From: Cladosporium halotolerans
Lineage: Eukaryota
DNA length: 64,000 nucleotides
NCBI RefSeq assembly: GCF_011745625.1
Contig: NW_027191476.1
Span: forward strand, 186,001-250,000
Direction of reading: 5' to 3'
In this document: one piece after another, positions 5,287 to 41,661 of the stretch
Layout: each line of letters begins with the position of its first letter
How positions within the stretch are numbered: the first letter of the stretch is position 1
Position numbers and translations under genes: made by a program
The notes under the pieces: generated by a model
Databases searched by the model: none
What the model saw: the letters and a program-made list of their open reading frames with translations, nothing else
Told to the model about the DNA's origin: nothing

Positions 5287-6428
5287 TGTGTGTGCTGTGT
5301 TGAGTGGAGAAGGAAAGGAAATGGGTATCACAGAGGAGGGAGTAGAGGTGGATCAGAGGCAAGGGACGAGAGAGCGAGGTGGTCAGCAAAATAAAGGAAA
5401 CCGTCGGCAATCGCTCGTGAGCAAACGGGAGCCCAGCACGGCCCTAAGAATGTGGTGGAACTGCGCAACGAGACTCGTCCCTTCGCCGTCCGACCACCAG
5501 AACGGGCGGCGGCGATGATGGCAAAGCGTTCGGCGGACCCACAGTACTTATCATCAATCGCCGCCAGGGACCGATGGGGCTGCCGGGCGGTTGGCGATGT
5601 CGGCAGCCATCGTCACTCCAGGCTCGCTTGCCGTCACCTGCCTTGACTGAGGAAGGGCGTTTAGGTGCATTATCGTACGACGCGAAGGGCTCAGGCAGAC
5701 ATTGTGTGCGAATGCCGGTGAGATGTCGTCAAAGATGGATGCGCAGGGCGGACGAGGCCATGCGACGCTAGCGTGTCTGCGTTACTCAAGCCTCTCGCCA
5801 TTGGCTGCTGCCCCTGCGGCTCAAGCGCCCTTCGGCTCCGTGTGAGAAATTCCATCAGCCCTACGAGTCGCTGTCTCGTTACCCCTTCGGGAAGGCCATG
5901 GCGACGATCACGTGCTAGACCTGCCAGCGCGATCGGGCCCTGAACATCATCCATTCCGTCGGAGATCGCTTCCGCATGTCTTCCCGTACGCACAATTGTA
6001 GGCATCATATGAGTGTGGCTGCATTTCGTTTCAATACAGGATTGTGCTTTCTACAACTCTACCTTTCACGCCATCTGTCCTTCGGTGGCATTCCCTGCTC
6101 CATAGTAACTACGCTGCAATGGCTGCGTTCTCGCCCGACGTACGATGATGGCCTCCCGTGTCAGCCTGAGCACCGGTGGGGATGGTTGTAGAGTTGAATT
6201 GGTAATGTGATTCCGTTGGTGATCAAGATGCTCTCGTGTCTGGCGTCTATGACTCCAGTCCTGGAGTGCCTCGTCCAATGCAAGCATTACGCTGATGTGC
6301 GGTTCAGAAAATAAGCTGCTGAGTACCGTCTCCCTTCCGGCGTCATTCGAGGTTTGATCGTTGGACTGTCGCCTTGCAGAGTGCCGCTTGTTCGTAAGGT
6401 GATCTTCGCCTCAGTTGGGCAGTGGACT

Positions 6429-7517
6429 TCAGCCTTTCCGAGATCTGGTGCGGCGTCCCTCGCCTTCAGCACCACTCTTCTCTGCAGCCTCAATGATTCT
6501 CTGCCACTCTTCTTCCTCCGTCGACGTGCTGCTGTCATTGGACCTGTTCAGATCGGTCGTGGTCGTCTCCTGAGATGTGCTGTCGTTGGAGCTGTTCGAA
6601 CTGGTCGTTGTCGTCGGCTGGGGTGCGCTGCCCTGCCCTTCCCAGTCCGCCCATCCATTGACCCTGACTCCGCTCGTGTTGAGCCAACCTTCGCTGCCAG
6701 CCGCCGCGGCTGCCCACCGCCCCGGAGAGTGGAGGCTAGAAGTCCGGTCGAAGAGGTTGGGATTGCGTACTCTTCCCTCGTCAGGATGCCGCGGCAATTC
6801 AGCAGGGGCAGGCGCGAAGCGGACGCGGGTTGCGATATGAGGAGGCGGCAGCGCTGAGGTGCTATCAGCACCCGCCGAATTAGAAGACTGCTGGCCGTCG
6901 TCTTCTTCGTCGTCGGCGTGGTCTTCTTCTCCGCCGGCATCACCTCCGTCCTCCATGACCTCGTCGCGGTCCTCCTCCCCACCGCCCTCGCCCTCACCTC
7001 TCCCGCCCTCGCCGCCGGCCGCAGCACCGGAATCGCCCTCGTCGTTCTCGTCGTCGTTCTCCTCCTCATCGTCGTCGTCGTCTTCGTCATCGTCGTCGTC
7101 GTCGTCATCGTCGTCATCCTCATCCTCATCATCCTCGTCCTCATCATCCTCTTCCACCTCCTCTCCCCTAACCTCCCTCTCTCTCCTCCTCCCTCTCCTC
7201 TCCGCCGCCGCCGCAGCAACCACCATTCCCCACCCGCCATCGCTCGTCCCATCGCCGCCCTCCACCGCCATCAGCTCGGTGGCGACAGCAGCCCTGGCGG
7301 CGCGCCAGTCACGGCGTGCACCAGGCACGCCGTCGCGCCAGGCGTCCAGGGCCACTGCCGCCTGCTGGCGCAGCGAGCAGAGGCGGCAGAAGGCGGGCGG
7401 AGGTGAGGCGGTGGCGGGAGGGGGGACGGGGTGGCCGCAGTTGAGGGCGGAGAGGGGAGGGGTGGGAGGCGGGGAGGGGGAGCGGGGAGAGGAGGGTTGC
7501 TGGGGCGGGGTGGACAT
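6429..7517 (-). CDS. Orphan protein A: CxH..CxxC module, long Asp/Glu tract, RVRF motif
   Basis: 362-codon ORF from ATG 7517 (ACCATG context). Motifs CGHP..FCRLC, TRVRF, RHPDE, PGRWAA, GWLNTS. Shares architecture with the two upstream ORFs. Confidence 0.75.
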   Translation of the reverse strand: MSTPPQQPSSPRSPSPPPTPPLSALNCGHPVPPPATASPPPAFCRLCSLRQQAAVALDAWRDGVPGARRDWRAARAAVATELMAVEGGDGTSDGGWGMVVAAAAAERRGRRREREVRGEEVEEDDEDEDDEDEDDDDDDDDDDDEDDDDDEEENDDENDEGDSGAAAGGEGGRGEGEGGGEEDRDEVMEDGGDAGGEEDHADDEEDDGQQSSNSAGADSTSALPPPHIATRVRFAPAPAELPRHPDEGRVRNPNLFDRTSSLHSPGRWAAAAAGSEGWLNTSGVRVNGWADWEGQGSAPQPTTTTSSNSSNDSTSQETTTTDLNRSNDSSTSTEEEEWQRIIEAAEKSGAEGEGRRTRSRKG

Positions 7518-7820
7518 GGTGGTGGTGGTGGTGGTCGTTGATTGGTTGATTGGTTGGTTGGTTGGTTGTGCGGTTGTGGTGATGTTGTGATAGGTAGGCG
7601 CGCAGAGGGGAGGGAGGGGAGGGGGAAAATCTTTCATGCAAGCGCGCGCGGGAGGGGAGTGGGAAGCGGCGGAAACAAGGGGAAGTCCCGCTGGAATCTC
7701 GCGCGAGATGTAAGTGAAGTTTGAGCGGTTTGCTCAGTGATTCAAGCAGTGCTCATCAAGCATCGCTCTAGGGACCTGCACGTATCCGCGCAGGCACCAT
7801 ACAATGGCGGGCTCCGCGGG

Positions 7821-8400
7821 AAGCTCATATCCAGGGCAACAACAACAACGTGAACAAAGAAAACCAAGGAGACAATGGATCCAGCGCCAGGGAGCATGCC
7901 GTTCCACGCAAACTTCACAGCGTCTCCGAGACTCGATCGAGGATGGCCAAAGGGTGAGCTCATATCCAGGGCAGCAATAACAATAAGGACAAAGAAATCC
8001 GAGGATATTATGGACCCATCGCTAGGGAATATGTTATCCCACACAGACCTCAAGGCGTTTCCGAGGCTTGATCAAGTAGGGCCAGTACAGGAGCTCGTCC
8101 CACGCAGACCTCTCTCTGCTTCCGAGGCTTCATCAAGAATGGCCAGTACAGGAGCTCATGTCCAGGGCAACAATAGCAGCACAACTAGAAGGATCCAAAG
8201 AGTTACTGGATCCGGCGCTATGGGATATGCCACGTCACACCTCACTGTGTTTCCGAGGCTCGATCGAGGATCGCCAGTACCGGAGCTCATATCCAAGGCA
8301 ATGACATTAGCAAGGATAAAGACAATCAAGTGAATTGAATGATCCAGCTCTAGGAAACGCGCCATATCACTCCTCTCTTCGTTCCCGAGACCCAGTCCTG
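7821..8400. repeat. Degenerate ~135-bp tandem repeat array (4 near-full units plus 1 internally deleted unit)
   Basis: Core (G/A)AGCTCATATCCAGGGCA or a variant at 7821, 7956, 8091 (truncated), 8152 and 8283. TTCCGAGGCT(C/T)GATC..G...GCCAGTAC-like segment precedes the last four. Spacings are 135, 135, 61 and 131. Confidence 0.9.
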
Positions 8401-8440
8401 TTAGGGAATATACTGGCTCCAGCTCCAAGAGATCCAGGCA

Positions 8441-9496
8441 TCACTTCTCGGACACAGGCATGGTCCAGCATTGCTCCTCTCTGATCGCATGGCGTCTGGG
8501 AATCATCCCTTCGATCGTCAAGACACGAACCTCGAAATCCACGGTGCTGATGCCCTCAGTTCCGGTCTCATCCTCCAGGCACTGGCTCGCGAGGCCAGGC
8601 GGGTAGTCTTCAACGATCTCATTCGCCTCGCTGTCTATCTCGTTAATCTTACATTCCATGAACGACCGGATCAACTCATCCGCGTCGACGAACACTCCCT
8701 TCGCATCATCGTCGTCCTGCTCCTCCTCTGCCGCCCAGCGCGAAGGCCGGCGCCTCCTCCTCCGTTCCTCCTTCTCACGCTCCGGATGCTTCACGCTCTC
8801 GTCGAACGTGACGCGCTTCTTGGGCGGCCCGCCCGCGTCTTCTCCTTCCGGGTATTCCGCTAGGAGCACGTAGCCCTCCTCGTCGACCGTCGGGAGGGCT
8901 GGGTCCTCGTGCTCCCGGCGGAGTATGGCCGCGTTCGCGTACGCCACTTTGGCGTGGCGTAGCGCCGCAAAGACCCTGCTGCCTTCCGGCAGGAAAGGCT
9001 TGAGTTCTTCCAGGGTGTATCTGGGCGGCAGCTTTGCGCGGAAGGCTTTGCGGTCGGCGCGGGCTGCTGCGAGGGCTTTGCGGAGGGCTGAGAAGGAGTG
9101 GCAGGACGGGCAGAGAGCTGGGTGGTTGGAGGTGTAAATGGCGAGAGCTCCTTCATCAGGGAGTTTGTGCTGACAGACGGTTGCCTTTGCTGGCTTGCAG
9201 GCGTTGCAGTGGCTAATGTTCGCTGCGGAGATCGTTGGTTGGCCTGGGGCCAGAGGGCCTCCGACTAGAGGGTGTTGACAGGTGGAGGCGACTACTGCTG
9301 GTAACGCATGTTGTGGACCTCGACTGACTGTCGCTTCAGCACTGTCGATGCACGAGTTGCAGTGCGTGATTGTCGCGGCCTTGAGGTTGTTCGGATCGAG
9401 TGGCGTGTCGACTCCTGAGAGCGGGTGACCGCAGATCGAGGCGATGACCATGGGCATGGAGAGGTCCAGAGGCTCAACGCGCATCGGCGGCGGCAT
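8441..9496 (-). CDS. Orphan protein B: three CxH..CxxC modules, KKRVTF motif, acidic tail
   Basis: 351-aa ORF with CGHP..HCNSC, CQHP..HCNAC and CQHK..LCPSC, then KKRVTFDESVKHPERE..PSRWAAEEE. Confidence 0.8.
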   Translation of the reverse strand: MPPPMRVEPLDLSMPMVIASICGHPLSGVDTPLDPNNLKAATITHCNSCIDSAEATVSRGPQHALPAVVASTCQHPLVGGPLAPGQPTISAANISHCNACKPAKATVCQHKLPDEGALAIYTSNHPALCPSCHSFSALRKALAAARADRKAFRAKLPPRYTLEELKPFLPEGSRVFAALRHAKVAYANAAILRREHEDPALPTVDEEGYVLLAEYPEGEDAGGPPKKRVTFDESVKHPEREKEERRRRRRPSRWAAEEEQDDDDAKGVFVDADELIRSFMECKINEIDSEANEIVEDYPPGLASQCLEDETGTEGISTVDFEVRVLTIEGMIPRRHAIREEQCWTMPVSEK

Positions 9497-10508
9497 AGCT
9501 GACTGTTTCTAGGTCGATGTCAGCTCTTGCTATGCGACGCTCGCTTTGAAATGGTGTGAATGCTGCGTCTTCGCTTCGGCGCCGCCGTTTGCCACGCGAC
9601 CTACGACTTAGGCGAGCTCGTCAGGTGCTGCAACACAGTTGATCATCCACTGTGGGTGCCCGACTCTGCTACGAGCGGTGCACATCGTCGGTGAGTGATC
9701 TGTCGCCGCCAGAGGTCTCGTCGCCGAAGAAGGCAAAGGAAAGGGATCTTCGATGAGCCAACGCAACTGACCTTCGTGGGCAGTAAGCAGGGCAACATGC
9801 AGCAGTAGATGAGGTGCCACGTCGTTTGTGCTGCAGGAAGAAGATGCCCCAGGGGAGCTCGTAGGGTTTTGCGATGCATCGTGAGTGCAGGGTGAAGGAA
9901 GTGGTGTTGGCGAAGAACTGGTGTTGATGTGTGTCTGAACAAGCAGCGAGACAGTGAGGCGGCGTTGTGGCAGTCAACAAGCAGTCACTTGCGAAGCATC
10001 AGCCACCTAGCTAAGTCTCTGCATTCACAAAGGCCAGAGTGACCGGCGGCCCCTCGCTAGATCGTTCGTGCAATGCTGCAACTTCGCTCGTCGTCATTAC
10101 ATTGGATAGGCTACTCATTGTTATCCTCTATATCGCCTACATCGACCTCAAGGCCCCACTATGCCTATGCCCTCACAACGGTCGCAGCACGCGGTTCGAA
10201 CATCAAGGGGTTCGACGATTACCGGCGATCGACATTACAATGGATCTCACAGAACACATGGAGAATGGACATTCAAACGATTCGCGCAAGTAAAACCAAT
10301 TGCATTCGATAGGAAAAAAACTAAAGCAGATCATTGAGCTCAAAGCAGGAAGAGGTGGCCTCCATCGCTGGAGAACCACAACAACCTCTTCGCAGAGCTT
10401 CGTTCGCTCACAACACCGCTCCACACTCTCAGGGCATCGTAACCGCTTCCCTTCCATCGCCACTTCGGACCATTCAATCCCAGAACCCATCAGACAACAA
10501 AAGAAAGA

Positions 10509-11111
10509 TCACAATGTCGACGGAAGGTGCTCAGACCAGCACTCTGATGAATATTCAAACTCCGGAACGTCCTCCCACTCATCTGAGTCGTCCGCATACT
10601 CCGAAATATCCTCCCACTCATCGGAATCGTCCGCAGATTCGCTCTTTACCTTCACCTCATCGCCAGCCCCCATACCCTCCAGAACGTCGAAGCTCACCTT
10701 CTTACCGCTCGGAGCCCTAACAACAGGAGTACCCTTGTCCTTGGCATCAGCAGCAGCGAGATCCGCCATCTTGTCAGCGTGGTTAGCAATCTTCGCCGCA
10801 ATCTTGTTGCAGCGCCTCACAGACTCCTCGTAGCTACCAAGATCCGTCAGACCATTTGCACAGTGCCAGACGTACTTGGCCTTCGCAGCCTTGGACTCAG
10901 CAATCATCGCCTCCTCGCAGGAAGAGCAGAGGAGAATGTTGGGAGAAGTGGTGATCATGTACGTCGAGGGCTCGGCATCCGAAGCAGAGAGAGCGCTGGC
11001 CCCATGACGGGACATGGAAGTTGTCAGTGTGAAGTTGTACACCGAGTGCTTGCATTCACTGGCGAGCTCGATGTGGGTGAACTCCCTGGAGAACCCGTTC
11101 AGCAGAGACAT
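10509..11111 (-). CDS. Orphan protein C: CKH..LCSSC module, KKVSF motif, repeated acidic tail
   Basis: 200-aa ORF from ATG 11111 (AAGATG). ECKH..LLCSSC, then GKKVSFD and ADDSDEWED twice (36-bp duplication). Confidence 0.75.
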   Translation of the reverse strand: MSLLNGFSREFTHIELASECKHSVYNFTLTTSMSRHGASALSASDAEPSTYMITTSPNILLCSSCEEAMIAESKAAKAKYVWHCANGLTDLGSYEESVRRCNKIAAKIANHADKMADLAAADAKDKGTPVVRAPSGKKVSFDVLEGMGAGDEVKVKSESADDSDEWEDISEYADDSDEWEDVPEFEYSSECWSEHLPSTL

Positions 11112-12669
11112 CTTTTTGAGTGTTGCTCTTGCCAGTGTTGTTTTTGTCAATATTGGTGCTTTGCAGAAACAAGACAGGGATTTGAGAGCCTTGGACGGGC
11201 GGTTATATACACGATACGGACGGCGGAGCTGAGGCGTGGTATGGGGGCTCAAACGTATTGCTTGGAGCCCGTACATAGGTATTGTGAGGCAACCCCTAGG
11301 ATTTCACCTCTGGCTATGCTTTGGACGTTGGGGAACAAATGCTTTGTTGCCCTTGTAAGTTTGACAGCGAAGGGGGCCTTCTAGTGGCTGCTTTTCTTTG
11401 TTGGTAGCACGAGAGGCACCTCACTTTGCGTACAGTGTTCGCTGCCTTCGTGTACCCGCTTTAAACAATTGCTTTGTTCTACCACAGAGCTGCTTCGGTC
11501 CTCCAGGGGCCCCACGAGCAATAGCAAAGGAAAGAGTAGTTTCCTTGACCGATTTGCATGGGAAGAGCGCACAGTCTGCAATCATCGGTGTCTAGAAGCA
11601 TTTTGCCGAGAACCACTACATTGTCACATTACTGCAAGAGTCTGCGAGCGTATCAAACCCCGTGTTGCTTGAGCAGTCGTTAGCGAAATGAGATGTTGCG
11701 AAAAGTCTTACAAAAAACAAGTCATGGGCCCGGATGTAGTGGCTTTTGATGAGGTGGAAGGATTCGTTCTACAGAACATCGATCAGTCCAACGATAGCTG
11801 GCATTGGTAATTCATGGTCATGAGTGGGCGGTAGATCATTGCTCCAGACACGAATGGTATTCCCTTTGTCAATGAATGATCAACCATAGGGAAATCGTAA
11901 TGGTCTGACTGCATGCACTTGAATAGTTCAACACAGAAGACGAGCAGACATGCACAAAAGTATAACAAATCGTTTCTCACATTCTCTGTGCGGTGCATAC
12001 TGCGGATGGTGCGGTCACCGTACTTCCCATCTACAGTACACTCATCGGCCACACTCTTCACCAAAATCAACTGCCGGTCTGCTTGCCCCACCCCGAAATC
12101 TGGGCAAATTGCCAAACAGTCTTCGTCTGGGTCGTCGCCGAGTCGAAGCATTCGCTCGGCTTCTCGCTTTTCGGCCCAGCACGGGGACGCGAGGCCCATC
12201 CTTTCGATCTTCACAACGATCCTATGTACCAAATCCACCCTCTCGCTCCACAATACCGCGACCTCCGAGCTCCAAAAACTAATCAACATCACTCTAAGCC
12301 TCGGTTATATGACGCTGACTTAGGGCTCGTCGGAACCTGCCAGCACCGCCAAGACTCAAGTGCCTTGGCCTGGTCGCGATCGACTTCACAGGTTGCCAAC
12401 TCCTCCCATTTCTCCTTAGATTCTCCGCACTTCGCCTCCGCAGTTGTGGAATTGCGCATGCGTTATGCGGGCATGGGTGAGACTAGGTCGTGGTAGCAAG
12501 GTCGCCACGTGAGGTGCCAAGGGTGACTATGGTCATTCGTCGGATTTTAGTTTGTGGGAGCCGGTAGTTGACTGCGGACAGAGGTTTGGGAGGTTTGGGA
12601 GAGGTAGGTCTATAAGAAGCCTATAGATCTCCGTATTGGGCCCTCCTGCAATCGGTAAGTGGAACAGCC

Positions 12670-16464: not shown

Positions 16465-16559
16465 TAGTATCAAGGCGGGTAGGGGTGGGTTTGGGCTTGC
16501 CTACCGAGTCCTTGCGCACCTGGATCCATCAGTGGACAAAAAAAAAGCAAAAGGCAAAA

Positions 16560-16678
16560 ACATACAACAGGCGGGATTCCCAGATGGTCACCCACTCTAG
16601 TACTAGTCGCCCGGTTCAGTGCTTATGTATGGCAGAGCGGACGGGATGCCCAGTTTTCACTGACCTGTGGTCGTATGT
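16560..16678 (-). rRNA. Dispersed 5S rRNA gene
   Basis: Reverse complement reads ACATACGACCACAGGTCAGTGAAAACTGGGCATCCCGTCCGCTCTGCC...GTGGGTGACCATCTGGGAATCCCGCCTGTTGTATGT. Terminal helix and helix II (UCAGUG/CACUGA) pair. T-runs (Pol III terminator) follow. Confidence 0.97.
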
Positions 16679-39817: not shown

Positions 39818-41661
39818 CTAGAAACTCTCCAAACTCCTACCAGCCTCAACCTCCTGCCTCCAGATGAGCCTATCCTGCTTCGGATTGACACCCGGGCCCT
39901 GGTAGTTGGACCCGTACAATCCGCTCGCCCAATCCTTGCCCTCGCCTTCCTTCGACTTCTTCGTCGCGCGACGCCTGTACCAACGTCCGTAGACCAGCAG
40001 GTAGTACAGCCTGAACGCCAGCAGCGCGAACTTGTCCCTCTCCAAGTCATCTGGGTAATCCGCGCCCAAGTCGACCGCGGCGCTGATGCCAGAGATGCAG
40101 GCAACCTCGTGCGCGTTGACCATCGTCCAAGCAGCGGCGTAGCGCGTGTGGCGCTTACCCTGCAGAAGCCACATCCAGGGGACGACGAAGAGGTAGTGTG
40201 TGAAAGAGTGGCAAAGCTGGTGCCACCAGTCCTTGCGGATGATCTTGCTCTCGTCGATCTCGTCGATGGACCACAGGTGGCTGTCGCGCTCGTTGTTGAG
40301 GAAGATGGTCTGGAAGACGTGGTTGTCGAAAGGGACGGAGGGCGGGAACTGGGCCTGGTAGTTGGTGCAGTCGAAGCACATCTCGAGCTTCGTCAGGTCC
40401 TGCGGGTACATCTTGATCAGGTACATGGGCTTGAAGTTCTCCTTGGCGAAGTCGTTGCGCTCCTGCATGTTGACGCCGTTGATTTCGGAGACGGCGAGGT
40501 CGGGATTGTAGAAATTCTCGTAGTGCTTGCGCATGTAGTTTGCGTCGGTGTGGGTGACCGTGACATCGTTGGCGAATTTAGCGGAACCGAGGACCCTCGA
40601 CTCAGTGGAAGTGATGGTGGACGCGAGAAGGCGCTTGGCAGTGTCGGTAAGAACGCACAGAACGATCTCATCGTACTGCTCAGAAGTTTCAACCTTGTCG
40701 GCATCGGCGTTCGATCCATCAACGCTGTCTGGTACCCAGGCGGAGTCGGTGTTGTGGTGATCAGCAGCTGGAGTTCGGCCGATGATCTTGACACATACAC
40801 CGTACTTGTTGCGACGAATGATGCGAGTGACCTCTGTGCTCAACCGGACTTTCACCCCCTTCTTGACAAGGTTCTTTCGCCATGTTTCGTAGAATTCGCT
40901 GAAGTTGGGGAAGACGACCATGGGGGGCTGGTTCGATGCAACGCTGTTCTTGTCCGGTGGGTACCACATGCCGTAAGTCGGGCTAGTGCAGAGACGCTCA
41001 AGGACCATGGACGGTACTTCCGGGGCGTAGTTACCAGTGCCCAGGAAGAGGGCAACCATCGGCAGAGCAACAACGTTTGCAAACTCCTCGCTGAATCGGA
41101 ACAGCTTCACAAGGTATTTGATCGGCAGCAGAGCGAAGAAGATCTCGAACATGCGCACGACCTTGAGCATTGTGAAGAATCGCTTGACCTCTTTCGCGTG
41201 CTTCTTCAGCATCTGAGTGGGGAAGACGTTGGTCCAGAATTGCTCGCCTTTGCCGAAGCTGACTTGAAGCTTGACAGGATCCGCCCAGTATCCGTTACGA
41301 GCAAACATGGTCATCGTGTGGTGGAAGATGTAGGCACCGCCTTGGACACCTTGGTTGAGCCATGATGCTCCTGTCTTCTCTTTGTCGAGCGGGATACTGT
41401 AAGCTTGTCCACCGCAGTAATCGACGGCATCGACGAGGGTGACATCGAATTTCTCGGGATGGTTGGAGAGATGCTCCGCGCATGTCATGCCTTTTCACTT
41501 GTTAGCTAGGATCGTATGCGAGAGTATGATCCGACCTTACCCGCAGCACCAGCGCCGACAACAAGCACCTTTTTGCGCTTGGCGTTCTCCATGTTGGTTC
41601 CCATGTTGAAGCGAGTCTGCGATCCGTTAGACTCGAGCAAAGGTTTCACGCCTTCCGGCAT
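39818..41661 (-). CDS. FAD/NAD(P)-binding oxidoreductase (amine-oxidase-like); exons 41661-41541, 41490-39818
   Basis: KKVLVVGAGAAG|MTCA Rossmann motif is joined across a 50-nt intron (GTAAGG..CTAAC..AAAG). YCGGQA and WTMVNAHEVACISG. Start codon is uncertain among three Mets. Confidence 0.88.

Follow-up and report, generated by a model that had tools for sequence, protein, structure and literature searches.

Three consecutive open reading frames (ORFs) on the minus strand of a 64,000-nucleotide stretch of the Cladosporium halotolerans genome (contig NW_027191476.1, positions 186,001 to 250,000; this whole stretch is referred to as the window) represent a real, undescribed and fast-evolving protein family, the members of which are probably partners of protein phosphatase 1 (PP1). 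An ORF reading of the window shows each of the three, designated A, B and C, to be open in a single frame:

10509..11111, minus strand: ORF-A, 200 amino acids (aa); an in-frame upstream ATG at 11276 is a possible start
8441..9496, minus strand: ORF-B, 351 aa
6429..7517, minus strand: ORF-C, 362 aa; an upstream ATG at 7637 is a possible start

A first-pass annotation of the window had credited these ORFs with a common series of short motifs, and all of the motifs it quoted are present in the order it gave. The anatomy common to the trio consists of one to three CxH..CxxC units, a helical hairpin and an RVxF motif, and the full order along the protein is CxH..CxxC with hairpin, linker, RVxF, cassette and an acidic low-complexity tail. 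The proposed CxH..CxxC, helix and RVxF architecture is therefore found in all three, except that B carries three CxH..CxxC units and not one; its relatives have two, and C and A one each. The cassette, [FY]xR..YxPG[RK][WY]A..Wx[DN]TS, occurs within the trio in B and C only. What had been taken for a fifth motif of its own in two copies (KHPERE..PSRWAA and RHPDE..PGRWAA) is present in both, as part of this longer cassette, which is intact in C and damaged in B.

Within this plan, ORF-A has a single CxH..CxxC unit with a longer spacer, a helix, KKVSF and an acidic tail bearing a 13-aa duplication (a 39-nt repeat); it is without the downstream cassette (score about 0 with the cassette hidden Markov model, HMM). 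ORF-B follows its three units, the region of which holds a 31-nt internal repeat, with the hairpin, KRVTF, the damaged cassette and a conserved C-terminal end of the WTMPVSEK type. RVxF and RWAA remain, but YxPG and Wx[DN]TS are missing, and the protein falls about 110 aa short of the nearest full-length relatives (proteins P0006-P0008). At position 8725 a contig from sequencing run X1 departs from the window sequence over a stretch of at least 255 letters, in keeping with a deletion in the lineage of the window. ORF-C combines one CxH..CxxC unit, a helix, a long Asp/Glu tract, RVRF and the complete cassette. The elements that carry the argument are as follows:

10689..10703, minus strand: RVxF of ORF-A, KKVSF, residues 137-141; RRVRF stands at the matching place in C. 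fusiforme
9101..9433, minus strand: putative zinc sites of ORF-B (residues 22-132), made up of three CxH-x18-21-CxxC units in tandem
8909..9109, minus strand: two-helix hairpin of ORF-B, residues 130-196, predicted with AlphaFold2
8804..8821, minus strand: RVxF of ORF-B, KKRVTF, residues 226-231
6669..6827, minus strand: family cassette of ORF-C, residues 231-283 (RVRF, FDR, HSPGRWA, WLNTSG), a candidate extended PP1-docking string

We conclude that A, B and C are anciently duplicated members of one undescribed, fast-evolving Dothideomycete family, a statement drawn for B-C and A-C from profile tests and synteny. The synteny comes from Cladosporium fusiforme, where a single public gene model (the unannotated hypothetical protein KAM0715502.1; P0005, Q7P37_009000; 1,221 aa) contains orthologues of A, B and C in the same order. 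In a three-sequence phmmer search, A matches the initial part of the model at E 6e-15, B the middle at E 1e-34 and C the final part at E 2.5e-10, one to one, and each part carries CxH, CxxC and RVxF; these orthologues retain the Cys, His and RVxF residues at 30-36% identity. Judged by its sequence, the model fuses three separate tandem genes, and in practical terms it needs to be read as such. With hhalign, the N-terminal modules of B and C align at E 1.4e-5 and those of A and C at E 2.6e-4, values which none of 150 column shuffles reached; the segments had been cut by motif and the A profile holds two sequences.

Two results count against a single family. Pairwise BLASTP among A, B and C found no similarity (best E 0.38), and the hhalign comparison of A with B was not significant, being equalled by 9 of 150 column shuffles. 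An HMM-HMM check, which the first-pass annotation had suggested for its old, fast-evolving tandem paralogue cluster, thus bears the idea out for B-C and A-C, together with the C. fusiforme gene order, but not directly for A-B. In our grading, profile comparison makes the homology of B and C firm and gives moderate support for A joining the family through C.

The cassette extends the family further. A cassette profile of 13 rows drew 39 proteins at E 0.01 or better from 8,000 candidates scored, a lower bound, comprising B-type and C-type proteins and two of a third kind (D-type), namely one from a metagenome (E 1.3e-8) and one, borderline, from Neocucurbitaria (E 0.0098). An HMM built from nine B-type rows only gave window C 25.4 bits, C. 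fusiforme C 23.9 bits and the D proteins 39.6 and 22.5 bits, while the best of 2,982 unrelated frames reached 9.8 bits. D-type proteins have CxxC..CxxC in place of CxH..CxxC, and their N-terminus showed no significant similarity to A, B or C (E 0.007-0.22); on present alignments they would join the family through the cassette only.

The three genes had been called orphans, a description that no longer holds: homologues exist in C. fusiforme, Cladosporium sp. NU13 and metagenome loci. A phmmer search with B against 1.84 billion representatives returned 14 matches. Among the relatives are an unannotated B-type protein, MBLNU13_g08952, of Cladosporium sp. NU13, and the unannotated CAO2657588.1 of Neocucurbitaria sp. 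VM-36, which has the cassette, CxxC..CxxC and RLKF. Neocucurbitaria belongs to the Pleosporales; the homologues found come only from Cladosporium, this one Pleosporales record and metagenome sequences. Similar motifs may occur in many hypothetical proteins of Pleosporales. Word-indexed homologue searches with C, either whole or as residues 222-300, found none. Queries of its own genome with B, the C cassette, A, P0053, P0008 and two DNA patterns yielded no further paralogue, all of them giving lower bounds; 20 DNA-pattern matches there were rejected as paralogues with cassette scores of at most 12.4 bits. A first metagenome scan produced 101 pattern matches, none of which was confirmed as a family member.

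Two metagenome loci, L008 and L009, have B followed by C on the same strand, and no A was found upstream of B in either. The trio's position between a cytochrome c peroxidase gene (CCP1, PF00141) and a GH3 gene, noted earlier as conserved genes on either side, is not kept in these loci, whose neighbours differ. L008 does have an oxidoreductase gene in common with the window (39818-41488), which makes it a rearranged form of the same broad region. In L008 a frameshift near 9740-9760 splits the C copy (9339-10267), by assembly error or because the copy is a pseudogene; the near-identical proteins P0046-P0049 are intact. In Cladosporium sp. NU13, P0042 and P0062 bear consecutive locus tags and have identical C-terminal B sequence with differing N-termini, and from this pattern they are probably alternative models of one frameshifted gene.

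The trio belongs to no named family, as had been supposed: Pfam gave no family above cut-off for A, B or C, zinc-finger families included, and the cassette matched nothing in Pfam and no PDB chain at E under 0.75. No paper on the family was found in a literature search that included Cladosporium with RVxF, the accessions and the motif, most subscription papers and supplements lying outside its scope.

The N-terminal CxH..CxxC module probably binds zinc, to judge by its ligand pattern. Across 25 B-type sequences, conservation in the Cys and His columns is 90% or more, and the four ligands of CxH plus CxxC are conserved with the exceptions of CGY in the L009 C copy and YGH in the first unit of P0015. 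In AlphaFold2 models of ORF-B and the homologue P0007 the Cys region has a predicted local distance difference test score (pLDDT) of 30-52. The hairpin, which begins right after the last CxxC, is modelled with greater confidence (pLDDT 72-86 over ORF-B residues 131-190 and 87-98 over residues 71-140 of P0007), and the rest of both models is without confident structure. Foldseek gave no match to the ORF-B model at E 0.001 or better, and VIA-align with the P0007 model retrieved generic hairpins only (best Z 7.2, root-mean-square deviation 3.5, 80 residues aligned). Around the RVxF of ORF-B, pLDDT falls below 50 over nearly all of residues 214-270 in a model built on a shallow alignment, consistent with predicted disorder.

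KKVSF, KRVTF and RVRF all fit the RVxF consensus [K/R]-X0-1-[V/I/L]-X-[F/W], X not Pro, as set out in passages of PMC10731240. Such a motif is readily obtained by chance: when the residues of A, B and C were shuffled 20,000 times, RVxF alone turned up in 3.9%, 9.2% and 1.8% of cases, and it occurs in four of 20 other window ORFs. The ordered CxH..CxxC..RVxF pattern appeared in 0, 8 and 0 of the 20,000 shuffles and in none of those 20 ORFs, a test that is partly circular because the pattern was written from A, B and C themselves. Conservation is more telling. We counted 43 cassettes in 42 proteins; the set comprises every cluster representative with a cassette plus window C, and excludes window B and additional cluster members. 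Of the 43, 32 carry RVxF: 28 of 30 B-type, both D-type (RVTF and RLKF) and 2 of 11 C-type cassettes; A has it in both known copies. The expectation that RVxF would be conserved in homologues is thus borne out for A, B and D, but not for C. Where the motif is present V and F are fixed, apart from a single L in place of V, and the x position is taken by T, K, R, A or S, never Pro or acidic, as expected of a docking motif. Furthermore, [FYL]xR follows 18-24 residues after the F in 31 of the 32 RVxF-bearing cassettes, with an aromatic residue 5-12 residues further on, as a matter of pattern only.

This arrangement recalls the RVxF-PhiPhi-R-W cofactors of PP1 (Phactr1-4, Bni4, spinophilin/neurabin, PNUTS, PPP1R15A/B), which likewise have a disordered RVxF, an aromatic-x-Arg 14-24 residues on and a further aromatic. 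These cofactors carry RPEL, PDZ or TFIIS domains. They show no sequence homology to the trio family by the Pfam and PDB searches above; the trio family differs also in its tandem, fast-evolving genes, in its N-terminal CxH..CxxC and hairpin, in the missing PhiPhi of the B-type and in the YxPG[RK][WY]A..Wx[DN]TS extension, which is unique to it. The Phactr1 string, as described in part of PMC7599070, comprises F522, Y534, R536 and W542 and can replace the PP1-binding domain of yeast Bni4. In PNUTS, the distance from W401 to R420 is 19 (PMC10731240, in part), to which the RVxF-to-Arg spacing of the trio family is close. The RVxF subunits of yeast Glc7 (Ref2, Gip2, Afr1, Reg1, Reg2, Sla1, Bud14, Bni4, Gac1) are also fungal, but have no Pfam or profile match with the trio family. 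According to portions of the review PMC6506691, in which the PP1 partners covered are yeast proteins, these subunits depend on RVxF and are structurally unrelated to one another. On balance, we lean slightly towards the family working like the extended-RVxF cofactors of PP1 without membership in any of their families.

Co-folding provides weak support for docking of C to PP1. The C. halotolerans genome has one PP1 gene (L010, G000:C2:364648-364791; at least three introns) and one PPZ gene (L011, G000:C267:220796-220942; catalytic domain in one exon). Residues 226-294 of C modelled with the genome's own PP1, entered as three exon-encoded chains and without the author's alignment, scored 0.50 against 0.00 for the best control; contact agreement was at least 21% and partner pLDDT at least 35 in these runs. 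Among solved pairs, 51 of 78 attained the mark applied, as against 2 of 108 mismatched pairs, but passes at 0.60 or under included only 5 of the 78 solved pairs and all 4 passing mismatches of 180. The benchmark did not include peptides or disordered chains, and memory of solved RVxF-PP1 complexes may explain the pass.

In the likeliest mechanism, RVxF would occupy its groove on PP1 and the cassette that follows would extend the grip, much as in Phactr, Bni4, spinophilin and PNUTS with their RVxF-PhiPhi-R-W string, with [FY]xR reaching the Arg pocket and YxPG[RK][WY]A and Wx[DN]TS lying on a further PP1 surface, while the zinc/hairpin module would supply localisation or a substrate. A has a minimal RVxF only, B of the window strain has lost part of the cassette and C is complete. 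Ser or Thr at the x position in A and B could permit switching off by phosphorylation, and the genes would probably be expressed only in some condition or stage.

Several observations speak against PP1 docking as the family's purpose. The strongest, with respect to PP1 as the only point of the family, is that 9 of 11 C-type copies have lost RVxF: F is replaced (mostly SVTH, SIAH or SITL) and the remaining cassette is kept; the nine resemble one another and make up a single group. The B-type rows are for the most part closely related, and 28 of 30 cannot be read as 28 independent events. The hydrophobic PhiPhi pair, expected 5-8 residues after F, is absent in the B-type (QQHP, LEHP), though seen in C. 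fusiforme C (IF) and both D-type proteins (VVF, VEF) and ambiguous in window C. An RVxF-like match need not bind, as in Hal3, where it does not mediate binding according to a passage of PMC6506691. Finally, the ratio of non-synonymous to synonymous substitution rates (dN/dS) between L008 and L009 is 0.48 for B overall (0.24 over 60 cassette codons), which counts in favour of the docking reading, and 0.49 and 0.63 for the two halves of C; values near 0.5 nevertheless signify weak constraint, a neighbouring enzyme giving 0.07 for a different sequence pair, the window and L008. Window-versus-locus values for the trio genes were dropped as saturated (dS above 2). The earlier proposal of the trio as candidate PP1 regulators is accordingly narrowed: docking is plausible, given the fixed V and F of 28 of 30 B-type cassettes and the weak co-fold, and is offset by the C-type losses, and an adaptor, an inhibitor and a substrate role cannot be told apart here.

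The same losses invite the reading that the cassette is the family core and binds another partner, RVxF being optional or part of a basic phosphorylated patch and PP1 a side partner at best. All nine C-type copies without RVxF have kept the cassette, the 13-row alignment shows variation at the F of RVxF and none at the R, G, A and T of the cassette, and the cassette resembles nothing in Pfam or PDB. Yet both copies of A that are known have RVxF and no cassette, and the V and F of nearly all B-type and both D-type proteins stand at a near-constant distance from the cassette; we consider this reading unlikely.

Less likely still is that the trio proteins dock on a PP1-type enzyme as its substrates, or on the fungal paralogue Ppz1, instead of serving as targeting subunits or inhibitors of PP1. 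Substrates are numerous among RVxF proteins, as stated in part of PMC11536154, and the genome offers one PPZ gene beside its one PP1 gene. Passages of PMC4999541 report for Candida albicans Ppz1 an RVxF pocket that is 91% conserved with altered PhiPhi and Arg sites, which would suit a B-type motif without PhiPhi. The same source describes a Z1 helix of Ppz1 that blocks the Arg site, for which reason PP1 is the better match for a conserved Arg spaced much as in PNUTS.

The evidence on transcription of the locus covers four of 24 listed runs, all as contigs and none recorded as RNA; X20 and X22 are from one study and at least 99% alike, and X2 is from another study and mostly 95-99% alike. Three introns were recovered:

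6202..6307, plus strand: GT-AG intron whose transcript is antisense to ORF-C at its 3' end; joint in X22 contigs, variant donor in X2
7710..7771, plus strand: GT-AG intron between ORF-C and ORF-B, divergent from C and antisense to B; joint in X20 and X22
9691..9783, plus strand: GT-AG intron between ORF-B and ORF-A, divergent from B and antisense to A; joint in X20 and X22, shifted acceptor in X2

At all three joints the GT..AG signature appears when the plus strand is read and is missing from the minus strand, so that all splice evidence is antisense, a further point against the PP1 reading. Each intron lies in an intergenic gap upstream of a minus-strand gene start (CCP1, C and B, respectively), and the transcripts head into the 3' end of the next gene; we infer that they resemble non-coding RNAs transcribed divergently from promoters that two genes share. 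A coding gene on the plus strand as the source of the introns was rejected, since splicing out all three opens no new long ORF. Contigs carry no strand; they span B in three of the runs, and A is represented in X2. In X20 and X22, A and the central part of C have scant coverage or none, which in contigs is no proof of absence. Antisense long non-coding RNAs are common in development of Fusarium graminearum and appeared not to silence their partners, in the part of PMC6094484 consulted, which makes repression of the trio by antisense RNAs only a guess.

It is improbable that the trio is simply decaying in the window lineage as silent or nearly neutral paralogues under antisense non-coding transcripts: although window B is shortened and lacks part of its cassette, B has a further 66-nt in-frame deletion in X2, one X1 contig has a 1-nt deletion at 11030, the L008 C copy is frameshifted, A is not seen upstream of B in L008 or L009 and the splicing seen is antisense only, the three frames are open in the window, both B deletions are in frame, orthologues at 30-36% identity keep Cys, His and RVxF, dN/dS is below 1 and codon use is coding-like (codon adaptation 0.68, 0.71 and 0.71 for A, B and C, each above its own other five frames, narrowly for C, where one antisense frame has 0.69).

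It is tempting to speculate beyond this, doubtful as the extension is, that these are Dothideomycete-wide zinc/hairpin PP1 targeting subunits, that the cassette is a new docking element which reshapes the substrate groove as Phactr does and holds PP1 after RVxF loss, and that spliced antisense RNAs from neighbouring promoters keep the family off in vegetative growth.

If PP1 binding is true, the trio would be a lineage-specific, fast-evolving partner set with an unreported extended docking cassette. Nature supplies a series of variants, with RVxF only (A), a damaged cassette (window B), a complete one (C) and a cassette without RVxF (the C copies of one clade), and this series allows a direct test of the gain and loss of docking motifs. 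Should PP1 not be bound, the cassette would still be an uncharacterised conserved motif.

As for the surroundings, a Pfam search identifies the neighbour genes of the trio as cytochrome c peroxidase, DRE2 and GH3. Between ORF-C and ORF-B lies a degenerate tandem repeat (7822-8360) with periods of 135 and 61 nt, single copy in the genome, which overlaps a 152-aa plus-strand ORF (7875-8333) carrying repeated words; this ORF is frameshifted in X2 and has no match in L008 or L009. A 5S rRNA gene of the dispersed type lies at 16559-16678 on the minus strand of the window, and near-identical copies stand downstream of the C gene in L008 (10785-10913) and L009 (10240-10370).

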